Shown piece after piece: positions 13,501 to 54,978 of a stretch of DNA of 64,000 nt (position 1 is the stretch's first letter; each line of letters begins with the position of its first letter). The stretch is taken from assembly GCF_963676685.1 (NCBI RefSeq), contig NC_092355.1, positions 43,772,001 to 43,836,000 of the forward strand. The letters run 5' to 3'. Below the pieces are notes generated by a model, which did no database searches, was not told the DNA's origin, and saw only the letters and a program-made list of their open reading frames with translations. The translations under genes and the position numbers were made by a program. The DNA comes from Mytilus edulis. Lineage: Eukaryota.

Positions 13501-16500
13501 AAGCAAAAAGCTGCAGAAGTAAAGATTTCGTTTCAATAAAAGCAATCAGTTTTTAAAACTCTTATATATCAAAAAGTTTTAAAACTTGAGGTATATAAAA
13601 TATTCCTACTAAGAAGTATTTTACCAATATCTGAAGTTGCAGCGTCTTCGGGAACTTCTGTGCAGTTCCTATTTTCATTCAGCTTCACAACGATACTGGT
13701 TGCAGTTTGAAACATATTGGATGATTTCATAATTCTTGTTACCGACCTTGTACCTGATAACAAGGAACGTAAGCCTTATAATTATGTTCACTCTAATTAA
13801 GGAAAGACTGTAATATTTTTCTGTATTTGAAGAAATAACATTTGGTGCACACTGAATAACTTGCGTAGCGGGTTATTTAACAGTGTGCACCACATTTTTT
13901 ATGTTTATCGAATAGACAGAAAAAATATTACAGTCATTTCTTATAATTTAATTCTAAATTCCATTTTAAACCGTAGAAAACCATAAAAAAAACGTTGACG
14001 ACGTCGCGGTCACATGACTAAATTATGTCTATGGGCTCATAACAAAACAACGTCAGCCAATCAAAAGACGCGTTACATCCAAAATTAAATTATATGAAAA
14101 TGGATTGATAGTTGATATTTGCACATATTAGCTAGTCAATAGAAGAAAGGATATAAGGTAATGTATATTTCATAATTAAAACCATTCATAGAAGCGCTTG
14201 GGATGAATGTTTTTTTGGATACATTGGACAGTCTAGACCTTGACAAAGGAACGCACTCTTGTTAATTGTTAGTGACCACATATTGCACTTTAAGTGTCTT
14301 TTGGTTTTGGAATGTTAGTGTGTTGCTCTGGTAATGTCAAATATCCTTCAATTTTAGTACTAAATCTCAAACAAACTTTAAATTAATATCGTTATCAGCA
14401 GTATTACCGTTACACAGAACAAAACATTATAATAGTTTTAGTCTGGACATAACTACCAACCTGTAACTTTAAAAGCATTCGCTGTCTTTCCAGAAGAACC
14501 ATTTGCCTTGGTTAATTTAAAATAATTAGCAGCCGTATTGAATTGTGTATAACTCCTCTCTGTCGTCTCATTGTAGGATGATGCTGCTTGAAATATTGAT
14601 ACAAAAGGCTATATTCAAAACCATATTTTTTCATATACAAACAGTTCTACTGGTGGACTATCGTTCCCCGCGGGTATCATCAGCTCAGCTTAGTTAGTAC
14701 TTCAGTACTGACATGATTAAACAAACTAAACTAAAATTGACCGTTTATAAATTTCGTATCACCAGCCCAGTAGTCAGCACTTCTGTGTTGACTGGTGTTA
14801 TCATGTATATGTTCATAATAATAAATTAGCTGTTAACATTTTTTTTAATATTTGAAATACTAAGATTTTTATTCCTCAGGGATAGATTATCTTAGATGTA
14901 TTTGGCAAAACTTTTTGGAATTTTTAGTCCTCAATGCTCTTAAACTTCGTAATTTATTTGGCCTTTTAAAAAAAAATTTAATCGAGGGTCACTGATGAGC
15001 ACTTTGTAGACGAAACGCGCGTCTGGCGTGAGTGTATTTTTTGTCCTGGTATCTATGCTGAGTGTATTTTCTACCTATGTAATCTCTGGTGATTTTCAAG
15101 CTATGGAAGCCATTTGTAAACTTGTGAAACTTTTAATGAACATTGACTTGATGGTTGATTTTCAATGTCTTCAAATTTTTGTTACTAACGTATGTGTCTG
15201 TTATAAACATCACCTCTGTAGAGGAATCGATTTTTTTGACTGATTGTTGTATCAAATATAGTTAACTTCAGATTAGGTATATGGCTTAAAAGGCTATCGA
15301 ATTATTAATGACTGAATTGAGATGAGCGAATTTGACAAAATCGCAAATTTACTAAAAAAAATAATATCACACAAAAAAATTTATTATAAACAAAAGAAGA
15401 AATGCTTACCCAATGTACAAAAGAAACCATTTGTCCTAATTCTGCATGAATTATTCATTGAAACTGCAGAGACGCCTGTTTTGTCATAACAGCGGTATGA
15501 TGCACAATGTAATACAGTGTTTTCTTTATCAAAACCATCTAAATAAGCAAAATATACAAATGTATAATTAGCCAGAATACAGTTTAAAAAATAGTTCTCG
15601 TAATATCTTGATGTGTATCAAATACATTGACAATATTTGAAGGACGTGTTTACACTTTTTTGAGTCGTTTATTTTACAAATATTTTATTCTGAATAATCA
15701 TTATGTCTATTTTTATTGAAGTTAATTTCGACTAAGAGTTTGTCGAAGAATGCTTGTTATAAATTAAAAAAACAGTTTTTATCGTCTCATCTGAACACTT
15801 TTTTCGATAAATATTATATATAAATTAATTTACTGGGATTTTATCATTGCTTGTCAAATGTTTTCTTTCAATAAATTCAGATAAAATAAGACAGCCACCA
15901 GATAACACATATAACCAGAAGATATAAAGAGGTCAACATATAGTTACTGACAATCACTCACGAAAATCAACGCTTATCCATTGTATCTATATAACCTATA
16001 AGCTTTATAACTGTTGTTTACGCCACCGACGCCGGATAGTATACATAAGTTTCGCTAACTGCAACTTTCGTCGCAGGTGAGACACAAATCTGGATATCTT
16101 GATAGGGCTAAAAACGAACATTCGAAAGCGTACAATGAATAAATAACTAAAGAATTACCATGTAATACATCAGTGCGTAAAACAACTCTGTGCATTGGTA
16201 ACCAAACACCATTTCGGTCATGTGGCATTACTTTGCAGATTTCAGACAAATTTCCTGGGATATCATATTTGCAGTGTTCTTGACTCGAAATCCAGTTCGA
16301 AGTTCTATCAATGTCTAAAGTACAATTAATTAAATCTAAATGTTTGTGACTATACATTGCTTCGAGCTAGTTGGCGTTAGTCAGGATTTTTACAGCCCAG
16401 TAAGTCAATGTTCTCGGTAAATGCATGATGTTCGATAATTTGGTTAGAAGACTTACATAATAAACACATATTCTGATAATTATGAGAACAAATAAAAACA

Positions 16501-22500: not shown

Positions 22501-25500
22501 TTTTATAGTAGTAAAGGAGGTAGTTAGAATCACTGATAGATTAGTAGTAGAACACTTAATCGAAGTGGAGATTGTTATTAAACATAAGCATTCTTACAAA
22601 CATACCACTATATGCCCAATAACTGTTATTTGACACAATAGAGCTACGGCATTGGTTAATGGTAACTAGCTTTCTAAAACTTGGTTTATTACTTAATATG
22701 CACACACACCTGTCTTCCTGTATCAATTGAAAATGTAAGATATAATTATAAAACCATTTCTCAATTGTGTTATAAACTGCTAGTACATTATATGAAATTA
22801 CAAGTACGTGTATTTCTCACTCTTACCTTTAACGTTATATACTAATATTTGCTATTTGATAAATGACTTGCCGTTTTGAATTTTTCCTTGGTATTGCTTT
22901 CGGTTATATTGTTATATAACTTTTTATTAAACTTCATAAATTTGATATGGAAATAGAATTTGTCAGTTTAAATATATTAAGACTATCTTCTTTTTCTCCT
23001 CGTGTTCGATGTACATGTACTATACCTGACTGTCAACATCAATTGTTTACTATTTAACTTCATAAAGGATTTTCCACTTTTTTTTTTCTTAAGAAGCCCT
23101 GCACCAAGTCAGGAAAATGGACATTGTTATATAATAGTTCGTTTCTGTGTGTGTTACATTTTAATGTTGTGTTTCTGTTGTGTCGTAGTTCTCCTCTTAT
23201 ATTTGATGTGTTTCCCTCAGTTTTAGTTTTTAACCCGAATTTGTTATTTCTCAATCGATTTATGAATTTTGGACAGCAGTATACTATTGTTGCCTTTATT
23301 TACGACACTCAATTTGAAATAGTCAACAATTCCTACAGATTTTTTAAAGAACTCGATTAAAGTCCGAGTCAGCCTTTTCCCGCCATATTTTAAATCTCAA
23401 ATATCTCGAAAAGGAGGTCCATGACCTATCAATATTTTTAGCTAATCTTTATCCTTAATGGATGCTCTACCAGCTTATAGTATCAATTTTGAATTCTTAA
23501 TTTATTATTTTTCACCTTACCTCACCTAAGTACATCCTTAAAGGAATATGCGTTACATATTTTCGACCTACCGATTAAAATTCCATACGAAAATTTTCAA
23601 ATAAAAGGTGATGAAGTACAAAATTCTTTTTCTGCGGATTTGCATTTTTCTTTTTCTAAATTGTGATGTACTTTGGGGTGTTTTAAGTGGGGATCATGAC
23701 TTTCCCATTTTTTTTGTAACGCTCATCTGATGGTTATGGACATTAAATTGTTCCAACCTATTGCTTTAAATATCATCTAAATGGCATACCATACAGTTTT
23801 GATCACACAGTTATTGTTTGACAAAAGTTTGCATATAATCAATTTTTCACCTTCTCAGTTGACATGTTTAATAAAAGTTTTATGAATGGGTTGAATAATA
23901 GTCATTAACTTAACAATCTGTTTCTTTGTATTTTTCATCTTTAAACAAATATAGCTGTACGAGTATGTTCTACATTCATGTAATAATTCGTTGGCAACAA
24001 ATCATTTTAATAAATATTTCATAATTTTAGAAAAAAACGTTATGGTTAGCTGTAACAATAAATATATATGTAATTGATGCACATGTTTTGGTCACCGCTG
24101 ATTAATAAATATTATCAGCATGCATGGTTAAGCGAGATTTCATTTCAAAGAGGGATCTATGTTCTCTTTTTCAGGTTAATGATTAAATCAGTGTAGATTA
24201 AATGCATCTTTTCCGAATATGTCACAGTTCGTCATTGCGAAAATTTACATAAGCGACGTCATTTACTTCCCTATCATGTATCATATATCCTTAACTACGA
24301 AATCATTAATTGTGCTGTTTCATTTTTAAACTGCATTAGTTACGATTTGTTTTGCTTAATCATTTATGAAAGTGAAATAGTGAAATAACAATTGTCATTT
24401 AGCAGCCAGATTCAATTTTAACAAATAAGCTCGGAAAATCGCTGATGAATTATACACTTGCAAGTTAATAATTCGACTTCATTTTATCCGTGTTCGTGAG
24501 ATCTTTAATGTAGCTCCTTAATTAGAGATGGGTTACGCATGTACTAGTTGTTTTTTGCTGTTGAAAGGAAAACAATGACAACATTGACAATTTGTCAATG
24601 TGTGTATCATTGTCATGTTGCATACTAGAAGGTTTTCTTTCTGTATCATATTGTAACATCGGACTCCGACTTCTTTTTAACATGTTGAAGGGCGCCTCAT
24701 TTATGAACCTCTCCTAAGTCAGTGGCGTCGGGCCTTTATGAGTTTTGTATATGTCCTAGATTTAAGTTTATTTGTATCTTTCGGAGTTTTGTGTTTCGTC
24801 CATTTTCGCCGAACTAGTACACATTATTGTTTAGAGGCCTCTTTAAGCTGGCCTCCAGGTGCGGGATTTTCACAGTGTGTTGAAGAATCATTTATTGCCT
24901 CTGGTGTTTTCTGCTCTTTGGTCAGATTGTTGTACTTTAACATGTTTTAAAGTGGATAAATAATCATTGGTTGTATAAAAAAAAATCTTGACTGCAGGTG
25001 ATTCTAGACTTGTAATTATTTTAACAGAATACTGTAAATTTTCATCAACATTAAATTATGTGTATAACTTACTATATGTCCTAATATTTCAACGTCAATA
25101 TGTTGCATTCTACAGATTTCTAAGCATTTTGATACTGTCGGTACCACTGAAATATGTGGCTCTCCTAATAGTTCAATGCAACCTATTATAATAGAAAATT
25201 CAATTAAAGAGATAGAGCCTAGATGGTCGATTGGTCTAGCGCGTGGGTCATAGTGCAAGCCGATTTAGTGCCAGTAATATCTCAGTAGCAATAGTTCGAG
25301 TCCCGGCAAAGAAATAACCAAATCGTGTTTTCGCAAATTTACAGATCGAACATTGTTGGGCTGATAATTATATCTTAGATTAGTACCGTTGTGCAAATCT
25401 TTAGACTTACATATATATATAAAACGTCTGTATAGTAGTCAACGATTTTCCCCACGAGGGCGCTGGATCGTTACGAGTAACGATACATGTACACAATAAA

Positions 25501-25876
25501 TAAATTATATAAACGCCTAAAAAAGTGTACACAACAACTCCAAATACAAAAAAAGGTAACTATAAATGTAATTATTTATAAATATTTCGGATAACAGATA
25601 TCCTTCGTCAGTCAGATTCTGATGTGAAATGAATCATCTTTGAGTCTCGTTAGATTAAACTTTTACTAAATCTTGAATTTTATACAATAAAAAAAGTCAA
25701 ACCGAACATCAGTAAAGACGCTTGCACCATTCTAAAAAAATGTTAACATGACATAGGTTATATGGTTTATTACAACAGAGAGCTCATATATATGCTTTAA
25801 ATACAAATAATAATGTGCGATGTGAACTAGCACAATTCTAAAACTGTATCGGGAACGACAATTATGATGATATAAC

Positions 25877-25911
<35 letters not shown>

Positions 25912-28900
25912 AAAAAGTAAATTAAGTCCGTATGCTGGTAGCATATAAGAATATATATATATACAACAAATACGGCAACCCGAGTACAGACAAACGCCGT
26001 TGAGCGAACATTTAGACATTTGTGCGGGAGGAAAATTCAAATGTTTCCCATTCTTCAAATGTACGGAACCAACAGAAGAATACCGTAAAGAACTAGAAAA
26101 AAAAACTCATAAAGTGTTTGACGCAAAGCTTGATGCTTAATAGTTACATGAACAATAACGTTGCGTCATAATACTAATTTGTTAAGAGCAATGACGTTAC
26201 CTCATAATACTAATGTGTTCCCCATAACGACGTTCATAGATATGGTAGTCCCAAGATGGACGAAAGCGCTAGGTAATGCTGCTTTTTAAACTCTTTTTTG
26301 TGTTTTTAGTTTTTAATATATAATTCCTTGTACACCGCTTGAATCAGAAATCAGATTCTTTCATATATAATTACCTTAGCCGTATTTGGCACAACTTTTT
26401 GGAATTTTGGGTCCTCAATGCTCTTCAACTTTGTATTTGTTTGGCTTTTTAACTATTTGGATCTGAGCGTCACTGATGAGTCTTATGTGGACGAAACGCG
26501 CGTCTGGCGTATAAAATTATAATCCTGGTACTTTTGATAACTATTTAACAAATTACAGATGTAACCCAATCTTTTGCAACATCAAACACATAAGTTCATG
26601 CAGCATTTTCGGGACATTCATAAAACTATCAAATGTTGCAACGAAAAGTAATAGGAAGTAGACGTTGGAAAGTATTTGGATAAAGTTAAATCCATAAAGA
26701 TTAGTACTAACCAATAAGGAATAGTTAAAGAAATTCAGAAGAAATGGACAACTCATATAAGAAAAGTCAAAAGGAAAGTGGCACAAAATTGCACGTGTGA
26801 CAGAAAAGGCATATGGAACCCTCTCTAAAAAGATATCTCGTCGATGGGGGTAAGATGGTAGGGATTATTTGGAACACCATTAACGATTTATCGTTTATAA
26901 TTAACTTTCTTCACAATCTTTAACTATATAAATCTCAAAAAAATTCATTCGTAAAAAAACAATTAACCGGGGCTATGTTATACTTCATATGGTTCATATT
27001 CAGATCATATATCTTTTTTCTCAAGTCGTGATATGTACGTAAAGTTTACCACTGGAGATAATCATCAGTTAATCAATGGCATCAAATACTCTTATTTTGA
27101 ATGGTTGTTTTTTTCAAATATCTAATTTAGATCTATTGATCATCTTTTTTCAATAGAAACATTTGGTAATCCATTGGATACTAGCTATGAGGTGTGAGGA
27201 ATTGTTTTTACAAAAACAACCAGAGATACACACAAAGTCATCACCTATATATAAGTGTCAATGTAGTTTCTTTCTATATCGTCATTCTTCTCATGCTTTT
27301 GGTTGATTTAAAAGATTGTCTTGGTGTATTTACTAAATGATTAACCAGCCATTTCAAAACCATTACCGAAAAGGACTAGTACTACAACGCTAGAAATATA
27401 TATATGCATTAATAGTAATCAGTTGCTTCCTTTTATCCATTTATGACCTATTTGTTTCTTCTTTTATTGTATATCACATTCATTTTGCAATCTGGATCAG
27501 TTTCCTTGAACCATTATATTTTATTTACAAATCAATCGATTTAAAATTTCTGGTAGGTCTTGTTGTCTTTAAATTCCATTTTTAATATTCTTATAGTTGT
27601 TATTCAAATTAATACTTACAGTTCTGCCTTTTTAAATTCTAAGTTTTACCAATAAAATTTATAAACCCGTTTCTAGACAAAATCAGTTTTGCAGTAACAT
27701 TTATATGGGACCTTATAATGATAGATTAATCCTTCAAATTGGTAAATTCTTTGAACCCACGTATAGAAATTTGCATTTTTTAAGTGTCAGTAAGATAGTC
27801 ATCCATGAATTAGAATCCAAACAGGTCACAATGTACTACCCACAAAAAGCGACGAAAAATACGAAGGTACTAACATTTTTCTATACTAATTGTTAAATCT
27901 GGTATAAAATAATCTTGTTCGAGTTACTGCACCCTTATTTTGATTACAGACATATTCCTTCCCCTAATGATTCTATTATCTCTTGCATTATCGTTTCGTG
28001 GAGCTATTTCAAATTAAATACATCTAAATGGGCTGTTTAACAATGTTCCTGTAATGGTATCGATACATCTAAACTGATGTTTTTTCACTCTAAAGCTCCT
28101 CTTGTTCTCAAATTTGGTCTGTTGTTTACTTTGTTTCTGTTTTGTTGTTTGGTTAAAAACTAGTGTCAAGAGCCAAGGTCGAATGAGATATCCACTGTCC
28201 TAGCTTACAAAGCCACTTATCTCCCGTCTTCAATTTTTTGTACATAGTCTTTAATTGAGTCATGTGTTTTACCAGCCCACTTTTGCAATTTAATGTAAAA
28301 ACTTTAAATTTGAGAGAATCTTGTATTAATATTATAATGGGCGAATGGTATTTTTACTGGTTACGTTTAACATGTTTTAGTTTTTGGGTTTTGAAACACA
28401 CATAAGCACTGTCTAAGCACCAATGACATTTGGAAAATTTGCGATTTCATAAAAGCTTTGCATTGCATAATGAAGAGACGCTTGGTGTGTGGGCCTCGAA
28501 ATATATCAATTGCAGCTAGTCATCAAACATTGTGTGACGTTACGTTACGTTACGTGTAATGAAAGGACTTGCTCTTGATAAACTACAGAATTCTGCATTA
28601 ATCAGTCGAATGCTCCCAGTAGCATGAAACGAATTGCAAAAGGCCACAATTATTTGTAATGAGACAAAAATGGCATCGGATCTTTTATTCGGCCTAGAGA
28701 GTCTTTTTTGAAACTTTATACACAGTTCTATAATCATTAGTCTAGAAAGTCGACATCTGCGAATAATATCTACATCGACCAGATTGGCTCTGTGCTTTAA
28801 CACCCTGTTTCGGCGAATACGATGTGCGCGTCGTCTCAATTGAACATACACAGCTGATATATTTCTTGTTTTTATTTCGGCTTAGGACATCGTAACTTCT

Positions 28901-33532: not shown

Positions 33533-34173
33533 TTATTTGGGAATGTGACCAGATCTAACATATTTCATAAGTCTGACCGCTTCAACATGCATGAAATTGA
33601 AATCCTTTCTCAAAATTTCTTCATTCAATTCCTGTAGAACAGCACTGTCGACTAGTTGGTCTGCGAATTCCTTACAATATTTTGACAGGTGAAGTTTTTT
33701 AAGAATACCAAGTGTCTCCTGGACAGATTTCCCATCGACAACAGACTTGGATGATCCAGCTGACGAGCTACTTGTGGATGAGCAATAATCACTGTCAGAC
33801 GCACATGTTTCTCTGATATACATATAATTGTCAGATGATTCTAAATTCACACTTTCGTCTGCATGCATCACACGATAGTTCTGATCCTCTACAACTACAC
33901 TTAATGAATCATACGGCCGCGCTGGTAATGGGGGTCTTTTTTCTGCGGAATATATTGGAGGTCTAGATGGTAACCACTCAGGATCTGGTTCGGGTAAGAC
34001 TTCATAAATGTCGTCTTGTTCATCCCTTACACTTTTACATTTTTGTCTAGGAATTAGCTTTGGTGGTACATCATTGTAGTCATTGCCATGAATGTAATCA
34101 CTTGGAAGTAAATCTGGAGGTACAGCATTTCCTGTTCCCGTAGTTTTCGCACCTCTTTCAAATTTGGTAAGTT
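33533..34173 (-). CDS. Last exon: Pro-rich/Tyr motifs and C-terminal SAM domain
   Basis: PKLIPR, RPPLPARP, DDIYEVL, NYRVM, DNYMYI; SVQETLGILKKLHLSKYCKEFADQLVDSAVLQELNEEILRKDFNFMHVEAVRLMKY is a SAM-type pattern. Confidence 0.85.
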
Positions 34174-37100
34174 CTGCAAAAAAAATGTGTTTTTTTTTCT
34201 TCTTTTTAAATGTAATCTTTAACACACAATTCACTTGTTGTATCATGAATTCATATATACTTGACAGTTTGAACATTTATGGTGTATTACCAATTTTCAA
34301 GGGCAACTAATACATGTAGAAAGTTGAAGAATTGAAAAATCTCCTTTAGTACTTTCGTGATAGTATTTTTTTTTTTTGTGTCGTTCTGAAAATATCAGTC
34401 ATTTCGAACTTCAAGCAGACATTATTTCAGAATATAGCGAAGAAATTATATATAATAGCTTGTATGTTTTTATTCTTTTATGTGAATGTATATACATGTA
34501 TTTTTTAAAATGCCGCCGTACATGCTCGTGCCTCTCTATTTCAGAATCCGTGTCATTGGTGTCATTTGTTACATATCTTTCTTGTTTTGAGTCTTGAAGT
34601 TCTTGTGAAGCCAAGAATTGTTGGCTGGTCTTTGATAGTCCTGCATAATGTATTCAATAATTTAGAGCTTACAAACTATAGCGATACCTATCCATTGTTG
34701 GTAAACCGAATTTTGACATCCATATATCTGTTTGTTGGGTTGGGTTGATACCTCATTGTTCTAAATCTTGCAACCCTTTTTTTTATTAATTTTGCATGAT
34801 ACCAAATAAATTTATTAATTAAACATTTTATGATATCGAAATCCATAACTGTAGATAAATATCGTTCCTACTAAGTATATTAAACCAATCTAATACATGT
34901 TTACCTGGACTACCTTCGTTATCCTGAAATTTGATATTCTTCTGTACAAAAAGCTCCATTGATCTCAGCTTAGCCTGGAACATTTCCTGAGATTTATGTG
35001 TATATCCAGTAATAATAGATACCGATATATCTGGACATAGAGCCACCAGTGCTGATACCGGTGATATTACACCTGTAATGGAAAAAGATCTAATATAAGT
35101 AATTTAAATACCTGCAATGGAAAACGTGCTGATATATGTGATTTTACACCTGCAAAGGAAAAAAGTACTGATATAACTGACACTACAAATGAAATGAAAA
35201 ATGTGTAAGTTTAATAAGTTTTTTTTTAAATTAGTGTTATTTTCACATGTGTGATGAATAAAGGCAACAGCAGTATACCGCTGTTCGAAATTCATAAATG
35301 GATTGAGAAAAACACGAATCCGGGTTACAAACTAAAACTGAGGGAAACGCATCAAATATAAGAGGAGAACTACGAAACAACGGAAACACAACATTACACG
35401 GTAACACACACACAGAAACGAACTATAATATAACAATGGTCATTTTCCTGACTTGGTACAGGACATTTTAAGAAAACAAATGGTGGGTTGAACCTGTTAT
35501 TGTGGAATGCCAAACCGCCCGCTTTAATCAAATCAAATATTTTATTGTCGTAGAAACTTTACAGTTTGTGACCAACATATATTAACGCAATAAACATATA
35601 TACATACATATCAAACATACACAATAAAAACAACATCAAAATTTATAACAACAAACAAGCTGTTAAGAGTCCCCTGACATCAGTTTTAATGAATTTTTCA
35701 AGAAGGATCCTAACTTGTGTGTTTGTAAAGGAGTTGATGGATTTAATAGCAATGTTAGATATAACATTAAAATGACAACATTACATTTTTATATTTATTT
35801 ACTTTACTGAGCTGGTTGAAGATACGCGCAAAGATATCAATTGTAATTTTGATGGCATATGTGACTAAGTGATTTTTTAATTTTGTCGAGTCTGCGACGA
35901 AAGTCGTAAAAAAGTGAAATGGCGAAACTATATTCCGTCGGTTTCAGTGTCGGTGTCAGCATATGAGTTCATTCTGTTGAAAAATGTAAGCCATTAACAA
36001 GTTTGTCAAACCTTCATGGAGTTTCATGAAACTTTTACATTGTCCCGTATCTTACGGCTAAATGGGATATTTGTAGTTCATAGTATTGCTACGATACAGT
36101 CAAACAGTAATAACTTGAAAAAATTATCAATTTCAAGTTGTTTTACGAACATTGGACTGATGTTTCTTTATTATCAACAAAAACGTAACAATCCCGCAAA
36201 AATAAACAGGTCATAAAAATAGGACTCTATTTTTAGGTTGGATTATTTATTATACCCCCGCTTTGAAAAAAGGGGGGTATACTATTTAACCTCTGTCTGT
36301 CCTTCCGTCAGTCCGTCAGTCCATCAGTCCATCAGTCCGTCAGTCCGTCAGTCTGTCAGTCAGTCCGTCCGTCCCATGAATATTTTTCGTTACATTTTTC
36401 TCAGGAACTACACTACCAGGATTTCTGAAATTTGGTTTCAGGCTTGATATAAGTCAGCTATACTGTGTGATGCGTTTTCAGATTCATCACTCGACAACTT
36501 CCTGTTTACCAGACACTTGTATCATGTTTACACCTGATAGCCAAGTTGAAAATTTTTCGTCACATTTTTCTCAGGAACTGCACTACCAGGATTTCTGATA
36601 TTTGGTTTCAGACTTGATATAAGCTAGCTATACCGTGTGATGCGTTTTCAGATTCATCAATCAACAACTTCCTGTTTACCGAACACTACTATCATTTTAC
36701 ACATGATGGCCAAGTTGAAAATTTTTGTCGCATTTTTCTCAGGAACTACAATGCCAGGATTTCTGAAATTTGGTTTCAGGGTTTATATAAGTCAGCTATA
36801 CTGTGTGATGCCTTTTCAGATTCATCACTCGGCAACTTCCTGTTTACCGAACACTTACATATTTTTACCCTATTAACATTATCCACTTGCGGCGGGGGTA
36901 TCATCAGTGAGCAGTAGCTAACAGTTACACCTGTTGAATTTATTTACTTGTCGATCAATATAAGTAAAAAAATAGATGTGGTATGACAGACAATAAGACA
37001 ATACTTTGCAAGAGACCAACTGACACAGAAATTAGCAAATATAGGTCCCCGTACGGCCTACTACAATGAGCAAAGCCGATATCGCATGTATACTTTTAAC

Positions 37101-40100: not shown

Positions 40101-43100
40101 ACGCAACATTATGTAGCGTATGATTAATTAGAAACAATATTTACAAGCACCAAAGCACTAAAGTAAAACATCATGTATGGTTTATAAATCTTAAACAACA
40201 AGCGTAAATTTCCATTAAGTTAATAGAGATTTAAAGCTTATTAGTATGCAACTAAACCTCTTACGGGAGGAATTGTACTTGATTTTCATATGATGAAGAC
40301 ATAATCTTTCTATCAGTTGAATTGGGGTCTGGAGCTGCTAGCAGTCCTTTATTAAAGAGGGTACAGATAATAGAGGGACAGTCAAACTCATATATCGCAA
40401 ATCAACTGACGGATGTTAATGTGTGTATCATTGTCATTTTGCTTAGTTGTTTTGTTCTTTTTATGTTATCTATTCTGACATTGGACCGGATTTCTTTTCA
40501 ACAGAGTGTTACTGTGTGTATTGCTATGTTTTTCTTTATTCTATATTGGCTAGAGGTATAGGGCGTGAGTTAGATTGGACTACCTATTTCAATTTGTCTT
40601 TAAATATAGAATGAAGTTTTTACAGCCCGATAATTATATTAACTTACGGAAAACGTTCGACAATATATGAAAACTAAATAAATCAAAACAACTTTTTTGA
40701 TTATATGCGAAATACAACATTAAAATGTTTACTTACTAATACTTATGGTCAAACATTAAGATACGGTATATGCCCTTTATATAGTCTAAGTTTTACCTGA
40801 TCTTTAGCATAATCGTCATACTTTGTCTCCCCATTGAATCCCTTTGTCAAGATCACTAGAAGTGGTAGGTTGCCCTTGTACCTTCTGTGGAATTCGGGTA
40901 ATGATAATTGTTTTTCTTTAGAATACTCATACGCACAAGGCTTTGACGCAGTAGCTTAAAAAAATGAAAAATCCATATGAAGCAATCGGAAATTAAGACT
41001 GAAAAAAGATATTTGTTCTGAAATATTTTTTATCAACAGATTCTGACAAATTTCGCGCATCTATGATATTATAAGTCGAAAGTCATACAAAATCAATGCT
41101 CGAAGTTCAAAATTTGATTTAAAACATGTAAAACACAGGTTGATCTTTAACGTTAAAGATGAGTTAATAACAGACCAAATACCATTGTTGCTAATCTGAA
41201 AGCCCGTAGCATGTCCTGGCCATTCCAAATAGTTTTGGGATATTCATCATGGGAATATTTTATTACGTACGTTAACGTTGTTAATCTATTTGCAAAAAAA
41301 AAAAATTCTTCTCCCTTTATTTATCAAATAAGCAATTGGCACTTCCTTCATCTAATGTTATCATGTAAACGGTTAAATAGAAGTTAACTTGTAAACAGGC
41401 GCTTATATCCCAAACGTCCGTTCCAGTCAATACTTGGATATAATACAATAAAACAGCCTGTCCTCAAGATCTAAAAGACAGTATGACTGTTACAGCTTAT
41501 TCTCCGATTGGGACAGTCTGTCACTACTAGACAGTGCAGCCTGGTACAACTTGTCCTTCGAGTGTAACAGTCTGTTACTACCAGACATTGCGGACTGGTA
41601 CAACTTTTACTCAGAGTGGGACACCCTGTCACTGCCAGACAGTGCGGTATGGTACAGCCTGTCCTCCCAGTGGGACAGTCTGCTATGTCAATCCTGATCA
41701 ACTTGTACGTTCACTTTGTAGCCAGTACAAAGTGTCCTCTCTATATTAAAGCGCTTCTAGCACTTAATATATCCGACGTACGCTCTGTTGCTTGATGACA
41801 GCTCATCGACAGCCAACTGACAGCCTTGAATGCCGTTTTTCGTTCTCTCATATACCCGTGGTCGATTTCATTATTCCCTTGATAGGGGTTTTCTCTAAAT
41901 GTTCCCGATACCGAACACAAGAAATCCCTCTCGAAAACCCCCATACCCTTGGACTCAACCACCGCCTTTCCCGCCAAACGTCTAAATCAAATCAACGCTT
42001 CTTCCTGCGTGAATTATGTATTGCTACAACAAGATTCTTCTTGTTTGAAACCATAAAGACCAATAATCATTTCAGTAGCTAGGTCAATAAAAGAATGTGT
42101 TGTATTTTTGCAAAACTAAACAACAAATTTAATAACCCATATATTACATTCAAACACAAAAAACTAAAAGTTTTACAAAATGTTTAAAAAAATTTAAAAG
42201 TTCTGAAATAATTCTTATTAAATTAGAACTTAAATTTGAAACTGGATATTTTATATAAGAAAACAATTATTTTCATGAAGTGTGAATGAGGACGTATAAT
42301 GCTTTAACACTGACCTGGTGGATAATTTACCAGCATAATTGCAAACGATATCACAAAGAAAAGTGTGTCTTATCTATGTATAAAAAGTTTAGATTACTAA
42401 AACAAAGCTTGGTTATAAACATGGTGTCCACAAATGTGCATAATGTAATTGTATTCTGCCTACAAAGAATTATTGGAGAAAGCAATAATTTTTTTTTCTT
42501 CTGAAAGACTTATTCTTAATGGTAATCTTTGATAATGTATCAACTGTATATTGCCAAGCTTTGTATTATTAATCCAAACTTTGACGCTTAGTACAGCGTG
42601 TTAGTGAATTGCTCTTCTTAATTGTTATTCAATTATATATGACTTAAATTTCGAAATAAACACACTACCTGGACATGGCATGAACACTTGTATAAATGAA
42701 CCTTGTTTTCTGGCTAGCCGAACCTCCCGGTTATATAGCAATGTTAAAAACACATACATTGGCTTCTCGTGCGTCTTTAAAGTTTTCTTATTTTTTAATT
42801 ACATATTTGAATTTGTTTTATAAAATTAATTTATATTAACCATAGAATGTAATTCATGATGATTTCTAGAAGTTCTTATTTACAAATATAGCAATCTACG
42901 AAATTAAAACGCATATATAATATAAGATAAAAACATGATAAAACGTCGATTTATAACAGCTATGTTTTTGATATATAAATTAAAACTAAACGTACCAAGA
43001 TCAATTCCAGGTTCAACAATGGCATCTGTTTCGTGTTTTTCAGTTAAATGCTTTCCATTAACTATCGTTACAATTGTTTCAATAAATTGATTCATTCCTT

Positions 43101-46100
43101 CTTGAAAATTTTCCTCAGAGGTCATTGTTTCTTTTTTCAACCGAAAATAAACAGCCAATGCGTGGTGATCCAGGTGTTGTTCTTCTTCGCACATATCATT
43201 TTCAGAATCACTGTCTGTTGCAATGTCACATAATTCATCTGAAAACAGAGCCCGTGCTAGTATTGATTTTTGTCTCATCCTAAGTATCAATCTGCCGACA
43301 ATTTAATTTGAAAAAAAAAATCATTTGAAGATAACCATGATGACGTTGATAGTGTTAGGCTTTTCAAAAAATTTTCAAAGATTTAAATTCTCTTCATATT
43401 TGTACTTGTTTGGCTTCATAACTTTTTTGATCTGAGCGTCACTGACGAGTCTTATGAAGACGAAACGCGCGTCTGGCGTATTAAATTATAATCCTGGTAC
43501 CTTTGATAACTTATTAAATAGAGATGTTTTCAAACGTAGATACATGTACTCAAATAACAACATAATCTAATAGTGAATTGTAGTTTACTGATGTTAATAT
43601 CTCGTAAGTTGATTGGAAAGATAACAATCAGGGTAACAAAAGAAGACATAGGGGAATAAACACGTAACGTGTCAACCGGGTGCGGGAATTTCTCGCTACA
43701 TTGAAGACCTGTTGGTGACCCTCTGCTGTTGTTTTTTATTTGGTCGGGTTGTTGTCTCTTTGACACATTCCCCATTTCCATTCTCAATTTTATTGTTTCT
43801 GTTAGATAAGGATACAAAGAGACAAATGACAAGATTATTAATAGCTTATTTTATTTTTGCAACATTGATTGGTCGTAATTCTTACCATTTGGTTGTGTTA
43901 TTATAACGTGGATGCTTTCATCGGGACCAAAGTCTATAAGCTCTGCAATTCGATCCATAAACGTGCCTATCTCTATTAAAAAGGACGAATCATTTTCCAA
44001 CAATGACTTTTTGACTTCGACGTATAAAAGTAAACTTCCCTCTGTTGCTCTATCAAAAACAAATTTAAGTTGACCCTTGTTTATTTCGTCTTTGAAATCG
44101 TTCAGTAGTTTTGCTTTCTCTACAGCAACTTGATCTAGAATCTCGGGAAAGATTAAAACAAATGGACTAGTATCGCCATCATCTAGGATAACAAATATAT
44201 AAAACAACGTATTCATTAAAAATATATTTTATACTGATATATACATTCAATACAGTGTATCGATGAAAATTATAATCTTTTTCAAGGCAAAAATCATTAT
44301 CGTTAGTTAGACATACAAGTACTGCTTCTTTTTGTATGATATTGTAATTCTAACGCCTATAACATGTATGACGAAACATTTATTTAAATAAAAAAATAAC
44401 AATTTGCATTGAAAGCATATAAAACAATATAACAGTATAATTTGCAATATAAAATTGCGATATAATTTTCCCTGATGCATGGTTTTAGTTGACATTTAGA
44501 TCTTAAAGAACGACTCTTTTCCAGGGAATTATAATTTTAAACACTCAATTTAAACATACCAATATTCTCCATTTGAATGCGATAATACGAAAAAATTTCA
44601 GCTGCTAGTATTTGGCTAATAACAATCTAGACAAATATCAATAATAATTATGCAGCAAAGCTTATGGGGCTATGTAGCTATTTGTTTGTTTGATTGGCTA
44701 ATCATTTATCTACTAGTATATTATGGTATCATATGAACTTTGTATACTCACTAGTTAATGATATTTGCTGTTTTATGTATGCTGTCAGTCCCTTTTTATA
44801 ATATACTGTTACCTTTTTATCGTGCTGGTGAACTAGAAAAGTTGTACCTGGTAAAAGGATCATATTGTTACATGGTATACGTTTACTTAAGTATAATACT
44901 TTGTGCACTTCATTAATAGGGTGTGCTCCTTACACAAGTACTGCTCTTATTCAGCTAAGAGACAGCTGGAATCGAGGTTATGGGATACGTGTATGACATG
45001 AAAAACTTTCCCAGTCATAGCACCCGATCTCGTTTCTAAGAAATTCAGGCGATTACACGGTATTTCAGGTTTCTTTTCTGTCCACAATGTAAAATTGAGA
45101 ATTGAAATGGGGAATGTGTCAAAGAGACAACAACCCGACCATAGAGCAGACAACAGCATGTATCTTCTGAATGAATTTATACATCATTAAAATACTGTTA
45201 ACTCGAATCCAAATGTCTTTCGCATTGTTTTTGTTTTAATGAGTGTTCGGTTATTTTGATTTTCCCATTTGATTAGGGCCTTTCCTTTTTAAATTTTCAG
45301 CTCAGTATTTCTGTGATTTTTTGTACAGCACATGCCACTAGATTTATTGTTAAAAATTGTTTTAACCAAGTATAATAGTTAAAATCGAGAATTCACCACA
45401 TATTTTCAAAACTAAAAAAAAAAACAATCTATACGTGAACGGAATAAAACCTGTATTTCGTCTTTGATCTTAAATCCATAATTGAATGTTGATGACTTGA
45501 ACGGGAATATAATATTACTTTTATAAAATGATAAAGAGGGAAAAAAGGGGATTTCCGAAATATATTGGTCGAAACATAAAAAAACAGAAAACGCCATGGC
45601 AAATATAACTGGAATGTTCAATATGAACAGAGAAACAATTCCAACAAACACTTCGAAGAAAATAATGATTGAGTAATACAAAAAAGATTTTATTTCATCA
45701 AATATTACCTTCTTGGTTTTCTACAACCGATTTAGCCTCTAATGCTTCTCTAGTCCTGTTTTCGTCAATGGTGCAAGTTCGGAAATTCTCTATTTTCTTT
45801 TCGAATGACGATTCTAGAGTCTTATTTAAGTATTGATCAATTCGTTTTGCAACTTCAGTAAATTCTTTAAAGAAATCAGACATTATTGTTTCGGTTATAT
45901 TGATAGATAATCCATGTAAATATCTATTCCTGGCTCTACGAATTCTTTCAACATCATCACCAATCTCAACCTCTGTGGGGGTAGGGTTTGAACCCCAATT
46001 TCTTGTTGGTTTCGTAACAAATGTGTTCCTAAAATGCTTTACAATTATATATGCTAGTGAAACATCCAACACTTTGAAACCTTTGTCTGGGTCTGCTAAT

Positions 46101-46291
46101 TTGTTAACGACTTGCCATTCCTCTGGGGATAGTTTTTTATTAAAGTCCTTTGTTTGAACAATTCTGTCGTACAATGATTTGGGAGGCATCTGTGCATGTG
46201 CAATGATATCTTGAAGCATCTCTGACAGTATATCAGCCAACACTATACTTATTCGACCATGTCGTGCTTGTTCCGGTGTCGCAGTAGCCAT
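33533..46291 (-). CDS. HEPN(DZIP3-type)-2x unnamed module-CABIT-Pro/Tyr-rich-SAM protein (about 802 aa), GAREM/THEMIS-like adaptor with N-terminal HEPN
   Basis: Eight phase-compatible GT-AG coding exons: 46291-45709, 44182-43886, 43238-42996, 40954-40797, 39005-38864, 38239-38063, 35072-34905, 34173-33533 (2409 nt, 803 codons, no internal stop). A 5' UTR acceptor lies at 46342-46341. Confidence 0.72.
34905..40954 (-). CDS. CABIT-domain exons (40954-40797, 39005-38864, 38239-38063, 35072-34905)
   Basis: LSLPEFHRRYKGNLPLLVILTKGF..DQ|IIRLHR..FLSIPVDGKYKF..LMEEILAENNLPVQVRY: two LP-x-V subrepeats and SIP..YKF, as in CABIT domains. Confidence 0.75.
36250..36935 (+). mobile_element. HINE/DINE-1-like element with GTCC/GTCA microsatellite and about three 169-bp internal tandem repeats
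   Basis: 5' TATACCCCCGC..GGGGGGTATA, microsatellite 36295-36375, repeat anchor tcaggaact at 36401/36571/36739, 3' GCGGGGGTAT plus short hairpin. Confidence 0.8.
37138..37525 (+). mobile_element. 3' end of a Naiad-like PLE (RT C-terminus and 3' UTR)
   Basis: LKFYGRQHELVDRYGITVSQIISDM followed by a UTR also seen at about 16970-17205 and 32130-32225. Confidence 0.55.
41510..41683. repeat. 54-bp tandem repeat (about 3.2 units)
   Basis: Units start at 41510, 41564, 41618 and 41672 (gggacagtctgtcactaccagacagtgc..ggtacaac..agt). Confidence 0.8.
43436..43479 (+). ncRNA. Minimal type I hammerhead ribozyme (retrozyme repeat)
   Basis: gcgtca CTGACGA gtctt atg aagac GAAA cgcgcg TC tggcgt; all core bases and stems intact. 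Confidence 0.85.
45709..46291 (-). CDS. DZIP3-type HEPN domain exon
   Basis: LDVSLAYIIVKH..PTRNWGSNP..IGDDVERIRRARNRYLHG is the HEPN_DZIP3-like pattern with Rx4H (RNRYLH). Confidence 0.85.
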
Positions 46292-49200: not shown

Positions 49201-50569
49201 CAATTCGAATCAATTCGAATTAAAACGAAAGATCAGTGTGTGACCGCGATCAGCGAAATCGGTTCTCACTAGATATGAACTAAATTCGAACTAAATGTAC
49301 GTGTGAAAGAGGCAATATTTCTATTCCGTTAGGTTTGGATTTTCCCTTCTCTATTTCAATCTTTAGTAGATGTGGAACTTGATTAGTATCAAAATATAAG
49401 TCTTTGGTTAGTACTGCACGGGTATCTCTTATTTGTTATTACGGGAGGGGTTCTATAATCATACATATAAGTCTGATACTTGTATAGTACATATATGTAT
49501 CGAGGTGCTAACAGTAACTTGTGAGTACAACACGTTGTGTATAGTATAATATTTGCATTACATTATTTTGATCGAGTATACATGTAGAATAGCTAGAGAT
49601 GTGTTTGTTTAGAGATTTTTGTATTGGTTTTATTATCTTTATAAAAAAATCGCATCGTTTAGGAATTAATAATTTACTGTGTGCAAACCAAGCCTACCTT
49701 TTGACTTGACTCTTATCTAGCCATGTAGATATATTAGAAATGTTTTTACGTGGTACCCAAAACCTTGACTAATATTTATTGGGCTCGTTTGATTTTCAGG
49801 AAAAAATGACAAAATATTGACTCTGACCCTTTGACAAAAGTATAAAAATTTCAAAAATTTGAACAAACCACTTTGTCAGAAAAATTTTATTGGTTATATA
49901 GCAGTTTGACAAGCATTTATTTTGATCATTGAGAAGCTTAATATTTCCTTAGCAATACAACGTGATGAAAACGTTTATAGCAGATTTTTACAGAGTTATC
50001 TCCCTGTAATGTTAGGAACCACCTTAATTCGGACGAATTCGTGAGGGAGAATAAGAAGACTATTATTGTGTGCCCGCTAACATGTTTTACACCGCCACAT
50101 TCCTTTTATGCCAGTTCAAATAGATTTGAAGTTAGTGACCAGTTCATTTTTCGTTATGCAATAGTCCATATCCAACCGGCTGCTAACAGTTGAATCGATA
50201 TTCAATTTTTCTTAGTTGAAAATAATGAATATCTAAATATTCGATTTAAAACTTGACAGTCATAATTAAAAAGAGTAAAAAAATGAAAGGAAATCGTTTT
50301 ACGACTCATTCAAACTGTCGCAAATTATCGTTGTTTTCTGTTACCTGTCTTATCATCGGACTCGGACTTCTTCTAATCTGCTGAAACTCAACGTGCATTG
50401 CTATGTCTTTGTTTATCAACCCATCGATGGCCTTGTGCTGTTTTCTTGACTTTGGTCGTGTTTTTGTCTCTTTGACATATTTCCCTTTTCAATTCTCTAT
50501 TTCATTTATAATTAAAGCAATTCAGTTTCATGCGTATATATTTAAAGATCCACCGTCTTATATATATAT

Positions 50570-53133
50570 TTACGGCTTCTCCAACTTTTACTCTCCTTTT
50601 CTATCTATTCATATAAACAAATCAACTCTGGAATAAATGAAATGCTTTCTAAACCACCAATGTCCATTACTAACGGAGACATGGATTTAATCAAGAAAAG
50701 ATTATCCGATATTGAAAGAATAGAAAGTCAAAATTACAAAAACAAGCAACAAAAGAAATTTACCAGAGATGGTCTTAAACAGCAATTTTCAAATTTTGAT
50801 ATAAATAATATTTTAAAAGAGAGTGATTTAAAACAACCAAGAAAAAGACGTTTTAAAAAACGGACACACCCCGCGGATAATAATTTAGTTGTTAATCTGT
50901 CGTCAACAGAATTAACCAATTCAGAAGAAAAATTATTAAGTAGAGGTCTACACTTCTGTCCTATACCAGCAAACATTAACAACCTACAATTGGAGACAGA
51001 TGTGGATCAATTTGCAAGACGTCTTCGCCTAAAAGAACACTTTAATAGGCAACACAAAAAAAACTTACAAGAAGCCGGAATGAATGATTTGGAATATGAG
51101 AGTGATAAAGAGGACAAGTGCATCCAAAGATTTAAAAAGAAAAGCGAATGGAATCCACCAAGGAGTAAGAACGACAATTTAGAATCCTTTATATCATCTA
51201 TTAAAACTGAAGTAAAATCATCAGTCAGTGGCAAACGTTTACGGAATCTCTCTGAACAAGAAAGCCAAGCCATTAATAATTTAAAAAGCCGTGATGATAT
51301 TGTTATTAAACAAGCAGACAAAGGAAGTGCAGTTGTAGTGATCAACAAAACCGACTACATTGAAGAAGGGAATCGTCAGCTGGCAAATACAAAATTTTAC
51401 AAACATTTAGAAAGTGATCCTACAAAAGAAATAAGTAAACAAATTAATGAGGTCCTTTCAGATATGAACAGCAAAAAACACATAGATGACGACACGTACG
51501 ACTATCTACGTACTGATGAAACCTGCACAGCCGGTCGATTTTACTTGCTCCCAAAACTTCATAAAGAAAGGATTCCGGGAAGACCGATAGTATCTGCAAA
51601 TGGCCATCCAACCGAAAAAAATATCTGAATTCGTGGATTACCATCTTAGACCACATGTTAGAACAATGCCATCTTACATTCAAGATACAACAGATTATTT
51701 GAAGAAAATGGATTCATTAAATCCCTTACCAAACAATTTTGGTATCGATGGATGTGTCTTCTTTATACACAAATATTCCCAAAAATGAAGGAATAGTCGC
51801 TTGTGAACAAGTATGGAACAATCGTAAGGATAAACATCCCCCAACAGACTGTCTGGTTCAGTTGCTGCGACTAGTGCTGGAAAACAACAATTTTGTAATC
51901 AACGACCAGCACTACTTGCAGGTTGACAGTACCAGTATGGGAACCAAAATGGCACCTTCTTTTGCCAACTGTTTCATGGGGAGTCTCGAAGAACGCATCT
52001 TTTCGAATGTACCATACAAACCCTTGTCTTGGCTTCGTTATATTGATGACATCGACATCAAATGGAACGAAACTGCAGAACGTCTGCAAGAATTTCTCGA
52101 TTTCTGTAACAACTTTCATCAATCGATAAAGTTCACATCTGAAGTTTCAAATGAGAAAATTGCGTTTCTCGACACCACCATAACTTTAGAAAACGGAGTC
52201 ATGACAACCGACCTTCACACCAAAAAAACTGATAAACACCAATTTCTCTCTCCAAAGAGTTGCCACCCGAAACACTGCTCCCGGAGCATTCCGTACAGCC
52301 AAGCCATCAGGTTAAAACGGATTTGTTCATCGGAATCAAAATTAAACCATCGTTTGGGGCAACTCAGACAGCAACTTAAATCAAGAGGTTATAAGAACAA
52401 AAATATTTCAGAAGCTTTCGGTAAAGCAAAAGAAAAAGACCGAACAAACCTACTTGAGTACAAAGAAAAGACGGCCCAGACAAATAAAATCCCGTTTGTT
52501 GTTAGCTTTCATCCTGACCTGACAAATCTTTCATCAATTGTCCACAAACACTGGCGTCTTATTGAAAATGACCCTTCCTTAAAAGAGATTTTTCCATCAC
52601 CTCCCGTTATGGCTTACCGCAGACCCAAAAACCTCAAAGATATTCTAGTAACATCCAAAGTATCTAAACAGGAGATATCTACAATCGGAGGTTATACACC
52701 ATGCGGAAGGGGCAATTGTAAGTGCTGCAGAGTCGCCACTATCGAAACCCAATTCGTCAGCGCAGTCACAAAGAAAAAATACAACATATTCATAACATCA
52801 AATTGCAAAACGCAAAATTGCATTTATGTTCTAACGTGTGGAACTTGCAAAATACAATATGTTGGTGAAACAGAAACACCATTTAACATCCGACTAAATA
52901 ACCATCGGTCATTTTATACAAAAGAAAGGAACTGCCCAATTACAAGACACCTTTTAAGAGCAGGACATGATTTTGAAAACGTCACATTTCAAATCATTGA
53001 GAAAAATCAAAATTGGGATACACAAGGAAGACAAAAAAGAGAGAGATTTTGGATGCACCAGTTACGAACTCTTGAACCTGATGGACTCAATGAGAGAGAC
53101 GAAAAAAGATTTAAAAACAAATCAAAACCATAA
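50570..53133 (+). mobile_element. Penelope-like retroelement (Neptune-type): RT, Cys-rich linker and C-terminal GIY-YIG; frameshifted near 51620 and 51738
   Basis: KQADKGSAVVV, PGRPIVS, VSMDVSSLYTNIP, MGTKMAPSFAN, RYIDDI, SCHPKH..IPYSQAIRLKRICS, CGRGNCKCC, CIYVLTCGTCKIQYVGET, ERFW..L.TLEPDGLN; bounded by (TA)n at about 50559 and 53620-53765. Confidence 0.93.
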
Positions 53134-53307
53134 TTATCTTGAAATCATACAAATTAATTTATAGAAATTCATACAATTAATCGAACATCTATAAATGTGT
53201 TAAACTTTTATTCCAAGTTCATGTAGTTGTAGCTACAAACATATTAGCTGATCTGTAACAATAACATCTTCATGCCTTATATATCATGTACTGTAATACG
53301 CCGCTAG

Positions 53308-53358
53308 ATTAAAACTGACGAGGAAAGGTAACACACGGCCAGCGAAAGCTCTTTTATT
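53308..53358 (+). ncRNA. Minimal hammerhead-like motif in the PLE 3' region
   Basis: attaaaa CTGACGA g..ggt/gcc..c GAAA gc TC ttttatt: stem I aaaa/tttt, palindromic AGCT in place of helix III, irregular stem II. Confidence 0.6.
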
Positions 53359-53360
53359 GA

Positions 53361-53520
53361 GAGCCCAGGTGGTCGTGTGGTATAGCGGGACGGCTGCAGT
53401 GCAGGCGATTTGGTGTCACGATATCACAGTAGCATGGGTTCGAATCCCGGCGAGGGAAGAACCAAAAATTTGCGAAAGCAAATTTACAGATCTAACATTG
53501 TTGGGTTGATGTTTAGACGA
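53361..53520 (+). mobile_element. tRNA-like module (A box TGGTCGTGTGG, B box GGTTCGAATCC at 53437-53447)
   Basis: Pol III boxes with Leu/Ser-tRNA-like long spacing but no clean cloverleaf; second copy at 25213. Confidence 0.65.
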
Positions 53521-54978
53521 GTTGTATATACATTATGTACAAAGCCATGTATCACCATCATTGATGGCGATCCGATGGATACATCTGTTGTAGAGTTGTC
53601 ACTGACTCAGACGTACTTATATATATATATGTATACATATAAACAAGTCTAAATTGAAAACTACGTTCAAACCTATGATTGCGTTGGATAAAAACCGCAA
53701 TTTTTATACGTGTTACAAATTTCGTTGTAGAAGGGTCTAAATACATATATATATATATATATATATTTCTAAAAATCTAGAAAAGGGCTACTCCCTTGAA
53801 AAAAAATATTCAATCAAAATACAAATAAATGTTAACGGGAATGTTTTCATAGTACACGGATATCCAACTCGCTATTTCATTTCCTATTTACCGTAGACAA
53901 TGAAATTGGGGGTCAAAACTATGTTGGCATTAAGATTAGAAGGATCAACTCATAGGGAACATGTGTACTAGGTTTCAAATTAATCGGATTTCAACTTCAT
54001 CAACACTACCTTGACCAAAACCTAATAAAAAAAATAATCTGAAGCGTGACAGCCGGAAGAACGAACAGACGTCAAAAAAGATGGAAGAAAGACGGACGAA
54101 AAAATGAACGGACGGAGGAACGTATACACAGACCGAAAAACAAATATGATAAACATGAAATGTAAGCATTAATTTAAAAGTTCTTAAAAACTATGATTGG
54201 TGAGGTAGACCTCTCAAAAATAGAAGTTCCAACAATTATTACGCCTTACTTGTTTAAAATCCGAAGAAAAAAATGATCCGCTTTCAACCGCTTCAGAAAT
54301 CTTTTCGGTTTGAACATGTTGAAATTAAAGATTATTCAGTTCAAGAATTTTCATCGTTTTGAATGGCTGTAACATCAAATTCGTTGTCCAGTATCTCGAA
54401 TTGTTCTAAAATTGCATACCATGTAAAATATTACCACCAACTTTGCCACACACTATCATCTTAGAATCAGCAAAGAAAATAAACGCTTGTGGTTCTAACC
54501 AATTCATAAAATTTCAAAACTATTTTTTTTTAATCAAATACGCTGATCCTCATAACAGAGGATGTGATGTTTTCGAAAATATATGTTCTAAAACCCAATG
54601 TTTTCCTTGAGGTATTTGAATTTTATCATCGAAACACCAACAATGTTTACAGACTGTTTTTTTTATGTTTTTTGTTTTGTTTATAGCAGACCGTACTGAT
54701 ACCAGTAGTTTGAAATATTTGAAAATTGAATTAAAAAAAAAAAACTTCCTTTTAAATATGGTCCTAACTCTTGGTATACAGTATTAAATCTGACAGAATC
54801 ATTTGTGTCATTGACCCACATTTTAGTTTTTAATTCATACGTGTAGCCTTTGATTAACTTTCCGGGAAGTAATACCTAAATAAATAATAATGACAATGGT
54901 TTTGCAGGATATTGTTTGACCTTCAGTTTTTCAATATTTACAAAAAAAATATAATCATATATGATGGTGTTCAATAAC

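Follow-up and report, generated by a model that had tools for sequence, protein, structure and literature searches.

What is the stretch at 53308-53520, in which a hammerhead-like motif runs straight into a tRNA-like module behind the open reading frame of a PLE? It lies in the window, the 64,000-nt stretch of a Mytilus edulis contig analysed here, in a genome of 1.37 Gb. The original prediction saw in it both the 3′ end of a Neptune PLE and a PLE-dependent SINE/retrozyme hybrid that targets (TA)n. The hybrid is supported and the PLE end is not: the unit to which the stretch belongs is separate from the pLTR of the adjacent PLE, has (TA)n as its insertion target and two fixed internal stop points for its copies, and gives rise to plentiful RNA of the hammerhead strand that runs from unit to unit. 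In our judgement, the stretch is probably a copy of a 441-nt non-coding non-LTR retrozyme, likely furnished with a Pol III promoter and likely mobilised by Neptune-type PLEs.

The RT/GIY-YIG open reading frame that had been reported upstream of the module is present at 50569-53133 (plus strand, as are all features below unless stated otherwise). It is 5′-truncated, has a frameshift near 51620 and encodes an RT (RVT_1, PF00078, E 6.5e-8), a CX4CX2C linker (CGRGNCKCC) and, C-terminally, a GIY-YIG domain (PF01541, E 6.5e-6). Neptune elements have an RT, a CX2-5CxxC linker and a GIY-YIG at the C terminus, with a linker layout that the available text of PMC8557442 gives as common to Nematis. Domain layout and linker, both of them shared with Nematis, thus suggest that the PLE is Neptune-type. 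A genome search with its last 394 nt yielded 29 other loci, which were compared by counting flags for native UTR, hammerhead and unit only: 27 run into a native UTR, 23 match the pattern of that UTR's own minimal hammerhead, and none is joined to the unit at 53244. The native UTR also lies upstream as a pLTR in six of 12 long copies, and the longer copies, which reach ~300 nt further 5′ than the window copy, bear this native pLTR. The module is therefore neither the 3′ end of this PLE nor an integral pLTR of its copies. Its position directly after the ORF and in the same orientation is what speaks for a native pLTR at the window locus; the counts, and the different hammerhead of the native pLTR, refute this for the adjacent PLE family, and we give the idea practically no weight. 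Another, unsampled PLE family may carry the 441-nt unit as its pLTR. The best same-strand match between the unit and the PLE UTR covers only 26 nt (E 0.098) and gives no support for descent of the unit from this UTR. Copies of this PLE family are 95-99% identical and include many inverted 5′-truncated pairs; one copy (L317, G000:C2:43923000-43930000) retains an uninterrupted stop-to-stop frame of 980 codons.

The window locus is a chimera in which the 441-nt tandem unit is fused to the PLE. In the sequence, the composite insertion opens with (TA)n at 50559-50569 and continues through the ORF into the first 112 nt of the PLE 3′ UTR (53134-53245), which breaks off ~140 nt short of the minimal hammerhead that belongs to the PLE. 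The junction with the unit (53244-53245) has TT microhomology and lacks (TA)n; 384 nt of the retrozyme-like unit follow (53244-53627), and (TA)n at 53618-53641 forms the right edge. The fusion probably arose by a template switch. The alternative is a history of two events, namely insertion of the unit into a PLE copy that was already there and loss, by deletion, of what remained of the PLE 3′ UTR. The break does fall at an AT-rich point (CATATTT), and units are often found next to the ends of PLEs, both in one TA tract (L038, L041, L056, L059 and L324). Nevertheless, we consider two events rather improbable, given that the junction has no (TA)n, that the remainder of the UTR is absent from the window, that both halves are equally young (99% to their nearest relatives), and that a reciprocal join exists. 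In that join (L314), the unit is fused to the 5′ part of the PLE at a non-canonical point; two further loci show direct joins without a TA run, one of unit and PLE with ACATT microhomology (L033) and one of the unit with a related PLE with TATAT microhomology (L018). These direct joins bear out the predicted association of the copies with PLEs. Immediately beyond the chimera, in the same TA site, lies a 3′ fragment, on the minus strand, of a second tandem family that bears hammerheads (53644-53740; unit ~570 nt by eye), followed by (TA)n at 53738-53768. This family (L267-L277) has its own type I hammerhead-like motif, and its copies end TTTAGACT..TATA in TA tracts, like those of the PLE and of the 441-nt unit.

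The unit itself belongs to a family of more than 5,000 copies, which is present in assemblies under three organism labels. The 441-nt spacing was seen among 123 matches from the best 40 of 638 candidates, in arrays of up to ~20 units. It is non-coding, with a GC content of 0.40 and a longest ATG ORF of 62 aa in an eight-unit array. Insertions end on the right at one of two places, each followed by (TA)n: the main one, site A (~53530; 53512-53530, TTTAGAC..TTGTATA), or site B (~53627; 53607-53627, TCAGAC..TTATA), which is the end used by the window copy. Genome-wide, the exact site-A motif is followed by TA in 2,502 cases and continues into the unit in 2,788, that is, 47% of exact matches stop in TA. 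The expected association with (TA)n is thereby borne out in mapped copies as fixed 3′ ends that abut TA. The PLE, too, ends at two sites ~100 nt apart, TTAGACATT and then TA, and sites A and B resemble these two ends. Within arrays, private variants are shared: the median difference is 3 of 268 columns for adjacent units and 8 for units of different loci. Nearest-neighbour distances were left aside in this comparison, as the loci overlap.

The hammerhead of the unit is a minimal type I motif (53310-53356) found with a relaxed descriptor, which matches four loci in the window, this one and three canonical ones, and none in 200 dinucleotide shuffles. In helix I, TAAAA (53310-53314) pairs with TTTTA (53352-53356); the core CTGACGA (53315-53321, with A9 at 53321) is followed by a helix II closed by a G-C pair (53322/53343), then by GAAA (53344-53347) and C17 (53351), and a palindromic AGCT takes the place of helix III. 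Rfam (E ≤ 1 for the whole window, E ≤ 10 locally) makes no hammerhead call at 53310-53356 and calls only the three canonical ones elsewhere in the window; local matches to mir-6715 and Plastid-psbl-rps4 (E 2.6) were dismissed as chance. The predicted cut, after C53351, does lie just upstream of the tRNA-like module as originally described, with the tRNA-like +1 (G53363) 12 nt after it. The 3′ strand of helix I is at the same time part of a T-run (53352-53358) that is a candidate Pol III terminator; it reads TTTTATT here and most often T7 in copies in which A9 is replaced by U (U9). The three canonical type I hammerheads (14986-15029, 26467-26510 and 43436-43479, all on the plus strand; Rfam RF00163, two of them above the gathering score) are probably copies of the published mussel-type retrozyme.

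Directly downstream of the T-run lies the tRNA-derived head (53359-53457). Pattern matching places A boxes at 53370-53380 and 53378-53388 and a B box at 53437-53447, 19-96 nt downstream of the predicted cut; the combined A-plus-B pattern has one match in the window and none in 100 shuffles. Among nine tRNA sequences of six isotypes, the head aligns best with the genome's tRNA-Ser(GCT) (z 8.9) and tRNA-Leu(AAG) (z 4.8). ARAGORN, run on the window and on 30 loci, and Rfam do not call it as a tRNA, and there is no full cloverleaf. Judged by these motifs, the head is likely a tRNA-derived Pol III promoter. A dispersed, conventional tRNA-headed SINE (L121-L150) has a head that resembles the head of the old subfamily of the unit, and is a possible source of the unit's promoter; its body looks V/Meta-domain-like.

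The old subfamily is represented in the window by a solo copy at 25214-25365, which matches 53360-53510 (74%, E 1.5e-19). In agreement with the original prediction, it begins at the tRNA-like head, lacks the upstream hammerhead and is followed ~45 nt on by (TA)n and then by PLE debris in inverted orientation, which includes a minimal hammerhead of the PLE type at ~25580-25615. A separate ribozyme-free SINE family was entertained for this copy and ruled out: 24 of its 29 best relatives carry both halves of the hammerhead core upstream (10 of the 24 stem from a single copy that lacks helix II and has been duplicated), and by sequence these relatives are an older subfamily of the 441-nt unit. One relative (L062) starts cleanly at the head. 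The helix-II-deleted old unit has multiplied as part of a 1.3-kb repeat, found on contigs C12 and C6 (L065-L068, L071, L076-L079 and L082). The debris after the solo copy includes, at ~25411-25640 on the minus strand, the 3′ end of another PLE-like element, with the minimal hammerhead CTGACGA..GAAATATT and the end CAGACGTTTTATA in the TA tract.

Where, then, do insertions begin? Left ends were sampled from the first 100 site-A matches, all on contig C1; exclusion of 16 close neighbours and the last four left 80, of which 79 were mapped. Thirty-four begin downstream of the cut and 45 run across it, 22 of all 79 extending beyond one unit (>441 nt). These 5′ ends show a significant cluster at the tRNA head: 10 of the 79 fall within 53355-53366, where the rate in the flanks predicts 1.9 (Poisson p 3e-5, or 0.002 after correction for the scan). 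Microhomology of 1 nt with TA flanks could account for part of this cluster. Nine of the 10 lie at 53358 or later, and none has the U-run with which a ribozyme product would open; these head-starting copies are thus better explained by a Pol III start than by cleavage. The short copies that start at the head are SINE-like; those that cross the cut or exceed one unit are retrozyme-like. In its tandem arrays and fixed internal ends, the family departs from tRNA-derived SINEs, whose monomers lie dispersed and are copied starting at the 3′ end of their RNA.

The unit is predicted to be highly self-paired, with a circular MFE of -129.5 against -104.0 ± 5.1 in 40 shuffles (z -5.0). The fold includes an 18-pair clamp helix between 53290-53308, the 3′ end of the monomer RNA, and 53381-53400, which overlaps the second A box; these arms are the two ends of a monomer that is cut at the hammerhead or begun at the head. 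In 21 copies, old as well as young, pairing is present in 92% of the clamp's cells, while slid controls for the whole structure give 33-46%; the structure was derived from those very sequences. Five of the 18 pairs are changed on both sides, among them A-U/G-C and G-C/U-G swaps between subfamilies, a covariation that amounts to few events between two subfamilies. This supports, but does not prove, that the monomer ends pair in this helix.

None of the indexed datasets that contain the unit is recorded as RNA, and we have used four raw-read runs (X21-X24), chosen by species label, to probe expression; they come from animals other than that of the assembly and represent at most four samples from two studies. 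In X21-X23, the strandedness of which is deduced from read behaviour, the unit makes up 0.054-0.074% of reads, ~95% of them on the presumed hammerhead strand; in X24, it accounts for 0.004%, on both strands. Sense depth over the unit is ~770-2,600, against mostly 5-35 over the PLE ORF. Among the sense reads listed at site A, 877, 1,004 and 654 join the next unit and 46, 83 and 60 are TA loose ends, so that loose ends amount to about 4-7% of sense reads, compared with 47% in the genome. Of the aligned reads, a fraction of 0.09-0.10 in X21-X23, and of 0.58 in X24, passes into unlike sequence. Few loose ends and a low share of unlike sequence argue that the RNA is not passive read-through of average copies. 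Being short, the unit-to-unit reads fit circles and multimers alike.

After a plateau of ~150 nt, about one read long, sense depth halves at the cut site and T-run (in X21, from ~1,850 to 970), a pattern to be expected were this the end of many molecules; no drop follows the unit's other T4, and no pile-up of read starts or read ends passes the threshold anywhere on the unit. The dip could also reflect library bias at a structured, GC-rich spot. Some 950 sense reads in X21 span the cut site, mostly with the T7 run. A T7 run is expected to stop Pol III, and these reads therefore call for another polymerase or for a ligation step.

That the depth of reads across the T7 run is still half of its maximum is one reason to consider a promoter-less retrozyme or satellite, in which the tRNA-like piece is the passively captured head of a SINE, serving only as a helix partner, and all of the RNA is Pol II read-through of a few arrays. 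Long arrays exist, one haplotype (1,143 exact genomic copies) accounts for most sense reads, the A-box region doubles as an arm of the clamp helix, and a conventional SINE with a similar head is present in the same genome. Against this, 5′ ends cluster at the head, one A box and one B box have been retained in both old and young subfamilies, and the sense reads are heterogeneous and not from a single locus. Weighing these points, we regard the promoter-less alternative as unlikely and prefer the retrozyme with a probable promoter of its own.

How much of the ribozyme is still at work in this retrozyme? A9 belongs to the consensus hammerhead core (PMC3088659), yet 2,673 of 4,236 exact genomic cores (63%) have U in its place, and the consensus core is found in 1,563. 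In RNA, U9 is present in 85-89% of sense reads and in 52-69% of antisense reads, with A9 in 31-48% of the latter. U9 cores carry a T-run of at least 7 in 22 of 33 cases, against four of 13 for A9 cores. Helix I is mispaired beside the core in older copies (pair 35-84 is held in five of 20). The computed stability of helix II is +1.3 kcal/mol in the window copy, that is, unstable, and -2.1 kcal/mol in the commonest U9 haplotype, which retains C17 and a perfect helix I. In the available literature, the minimal hammerheads of PLEs are poor at cleavage and need to dimerise for it (PMC4209133), only one of nine predicted dimers of frog retrozymes cleaved in vitro (bioRxiv 10.64898/2026.07.22.740005), and a search of the accessible text for the A9U variant found no measurement of activity. 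Judged by sequence, the unit's hammerhead appears minimal and partly decayed, and cleavage is doubtful for most copies through the change of A9 to U. Without helix III, it would cut only as a dimer, and in U9 copies probably weakly or not at all.

These observations raise the alternative that the hammerhead is a decaying relic: the Pol III start and the T-run terminator would define the monomer ends, the clamp would hold them, and a host ligase would join them, no self-cleavage being involved. The dominance of U9 in the genome and in sense RNA, its association with long T-runs, the head-starting insertions that lack a U-run and the proximity of start, terminator and cut site, all within 12 nt, favour it. 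Against it, a 5′-triphosphate RNA end would need processing prior to ligation, and the commonest U9 haplotype, with its better helix II, its C17 and its perfect helix I, looks as if still under selection. The RNA junction, moreover, shows the T7 mode of the genome, and so looks inherited and not remade. We treat the relic as possible, if on the doubtful side. A related and equally tentative thought is that the retrozyme is switching its mode of replication: a captured tRNA promoter and a lengthening T-run would define the ends at the old cut site, the covarying helix would bring them together, and the dominant subfamily would circle with a crippled ribozyme. If true, this would be a living intermediate on the way from hammerhead retrozymes to circular Penelope passengers that lack a ribozyme and are driven by Pol III, and both states could be assayed in a single genome.

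The retrozyme that we favour would work through two pools of RNA, linear monomers and joined RNA. Linear monomers would start by Pol III at the head (53359-53362) and end at the T-run or at the cut site; priming by the PLE enzyme inside them, at site A or B, would give short, ribozyme-less, SINE-like copies such as that at 25214. Joined RNA, be it circles or uncut multimers, would be copied round the junction into tandem arrays with the hammerhead. At the window locus, copying would have begun at site B and covered 384 nt, head and hammerhead included, before the enzyme changed template at TT to the mRNA of the PLE and went on for another ~2.7 kb. Internal priming at two sites has a precedent in the PLE PAc, for which, in the available text, mutation of the hammerhead did not stop insertion in vitro (PMC11167929). 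The helper may also be another TA-targeting PLE clade.

Among known systems, the family is closest in kind to animal non-LTR retrozymes, which, as far as the available texts go (PMC7229834; PMC7761336; bioRxiv 10.64898/2026.07.22.740005), are tandem units of 150-450 bp with a type I hammerhead motif per unit, and share with ours a GC content below 50%, the lack of a long ORF, strong self-pairing, abundant RNA and a proposed dependence on PLEs. Such retrozymes occur as dimers to multimers, and their RNA is present as abundant circular and linear monomers. This dependence has been argued from co-occurrence and pLTR similarity (bioRxiv 10.64898/2026.07.22.740005), and retrozymes show, in the accessible part of a 2020 review, no motif that names their helper (PMC7761336). 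Judged by unit size, our family, at 441 nt, differs from the retrozyme families of Mytilus galloprovincialis (350-390 bp; PMC7229834, available text). Its hammerhead is of the PLE-type minimal kind, without helix III and mostly U9; it has internal tRNA-derived A and B boxes, whereas retrozymes seem promoter-less in the text at hand (PMC7761336); and it has SINE-like copies that start from the head, as well as direct chimeras with a named PLE.

A tRNA-derived Pol III promoter and a hammerhead are combined in a short tandem retroposon also by schistosome Sm-alpha/Sj-alpha (PMC6765202, PMC2770079, both in their available portions). The Sm-alpha promoter stands upstream of a canonical hammerhead, and cleavage leaves it at the monomer's 3′ end (PMC6765202); in the 441-nt unit, the promoter directly follows the cut, an arrangement that leads to a tRNA-headed monomer and to promoter-bearing short copies. 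The head of Sm-alpha is Gln-derived and ours is Ser/Leu-like, a comparison of arrangement and not of homology. With the minimal hammerheads of PLE pLTRs, as given in the accessible text of PMC4209133, the unit's motif shares the lack of helix III, the palindromic 15.2-16.2, the short helix I and G10.1-C11.1, and, like them, it would work as a dimer with low activity; unlike them, its helix II is interrupted and not long, and the motif does not lie in a pLTR. The PLE's own hammerhead fits this published type better than does that of the unit. Targeting of (TA)n, inverted 5′-truncated copies and two fixed 3′ end points are likewise features of Neptune PLEs and PAc in the available text (PMC8557442, PMC11167929). 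PAc is a Poseidon element with adjacent priming sites (PMC11167929), unlike the PLE and the unit, in both of which the ends are ~100 nt apart.

Literature searches, judged for the most part by their listings, showed no description of the 441-nt family or of a tRNA-headed PLE-dependent retrozyme in molluscs; the available text of PMC4758252 does not mention Mytilus. The family offers a candidate internal promoter for animal retrozymes and so bears on how these are transcribed and which enzyme copies them. It also has two defined, presumed priming sites that resemble the ends of the PLE, and chimeras both ways, which suggest that a single reaction copies the RNA of PLE and unit. With A9 and U9 subfamilies occurring naturally side by side, and RNA in abundance, the need for the hammerhead becomes directly testable.

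Several other features of the window and genome deserve mention. On the minus strand, an open frame at 45698-46291 with a DZIP3-like HEPN match (PF18738, E 4.1e-6) is probably an exon, and 33533-34276 has a weak SAM match. Tandem repeats are found at 36377-36855 (170 bp, 2.8 copies) and 41485-41682 (54 bp, 3.7 copies). Elsewhere, tRNA genes form long tandem arrays (L091-L120 and L151), of Gly-CCC/Thr-CGT, of Lys-TTT/Met and of Leu-AAG with an intron-bearing Met call.
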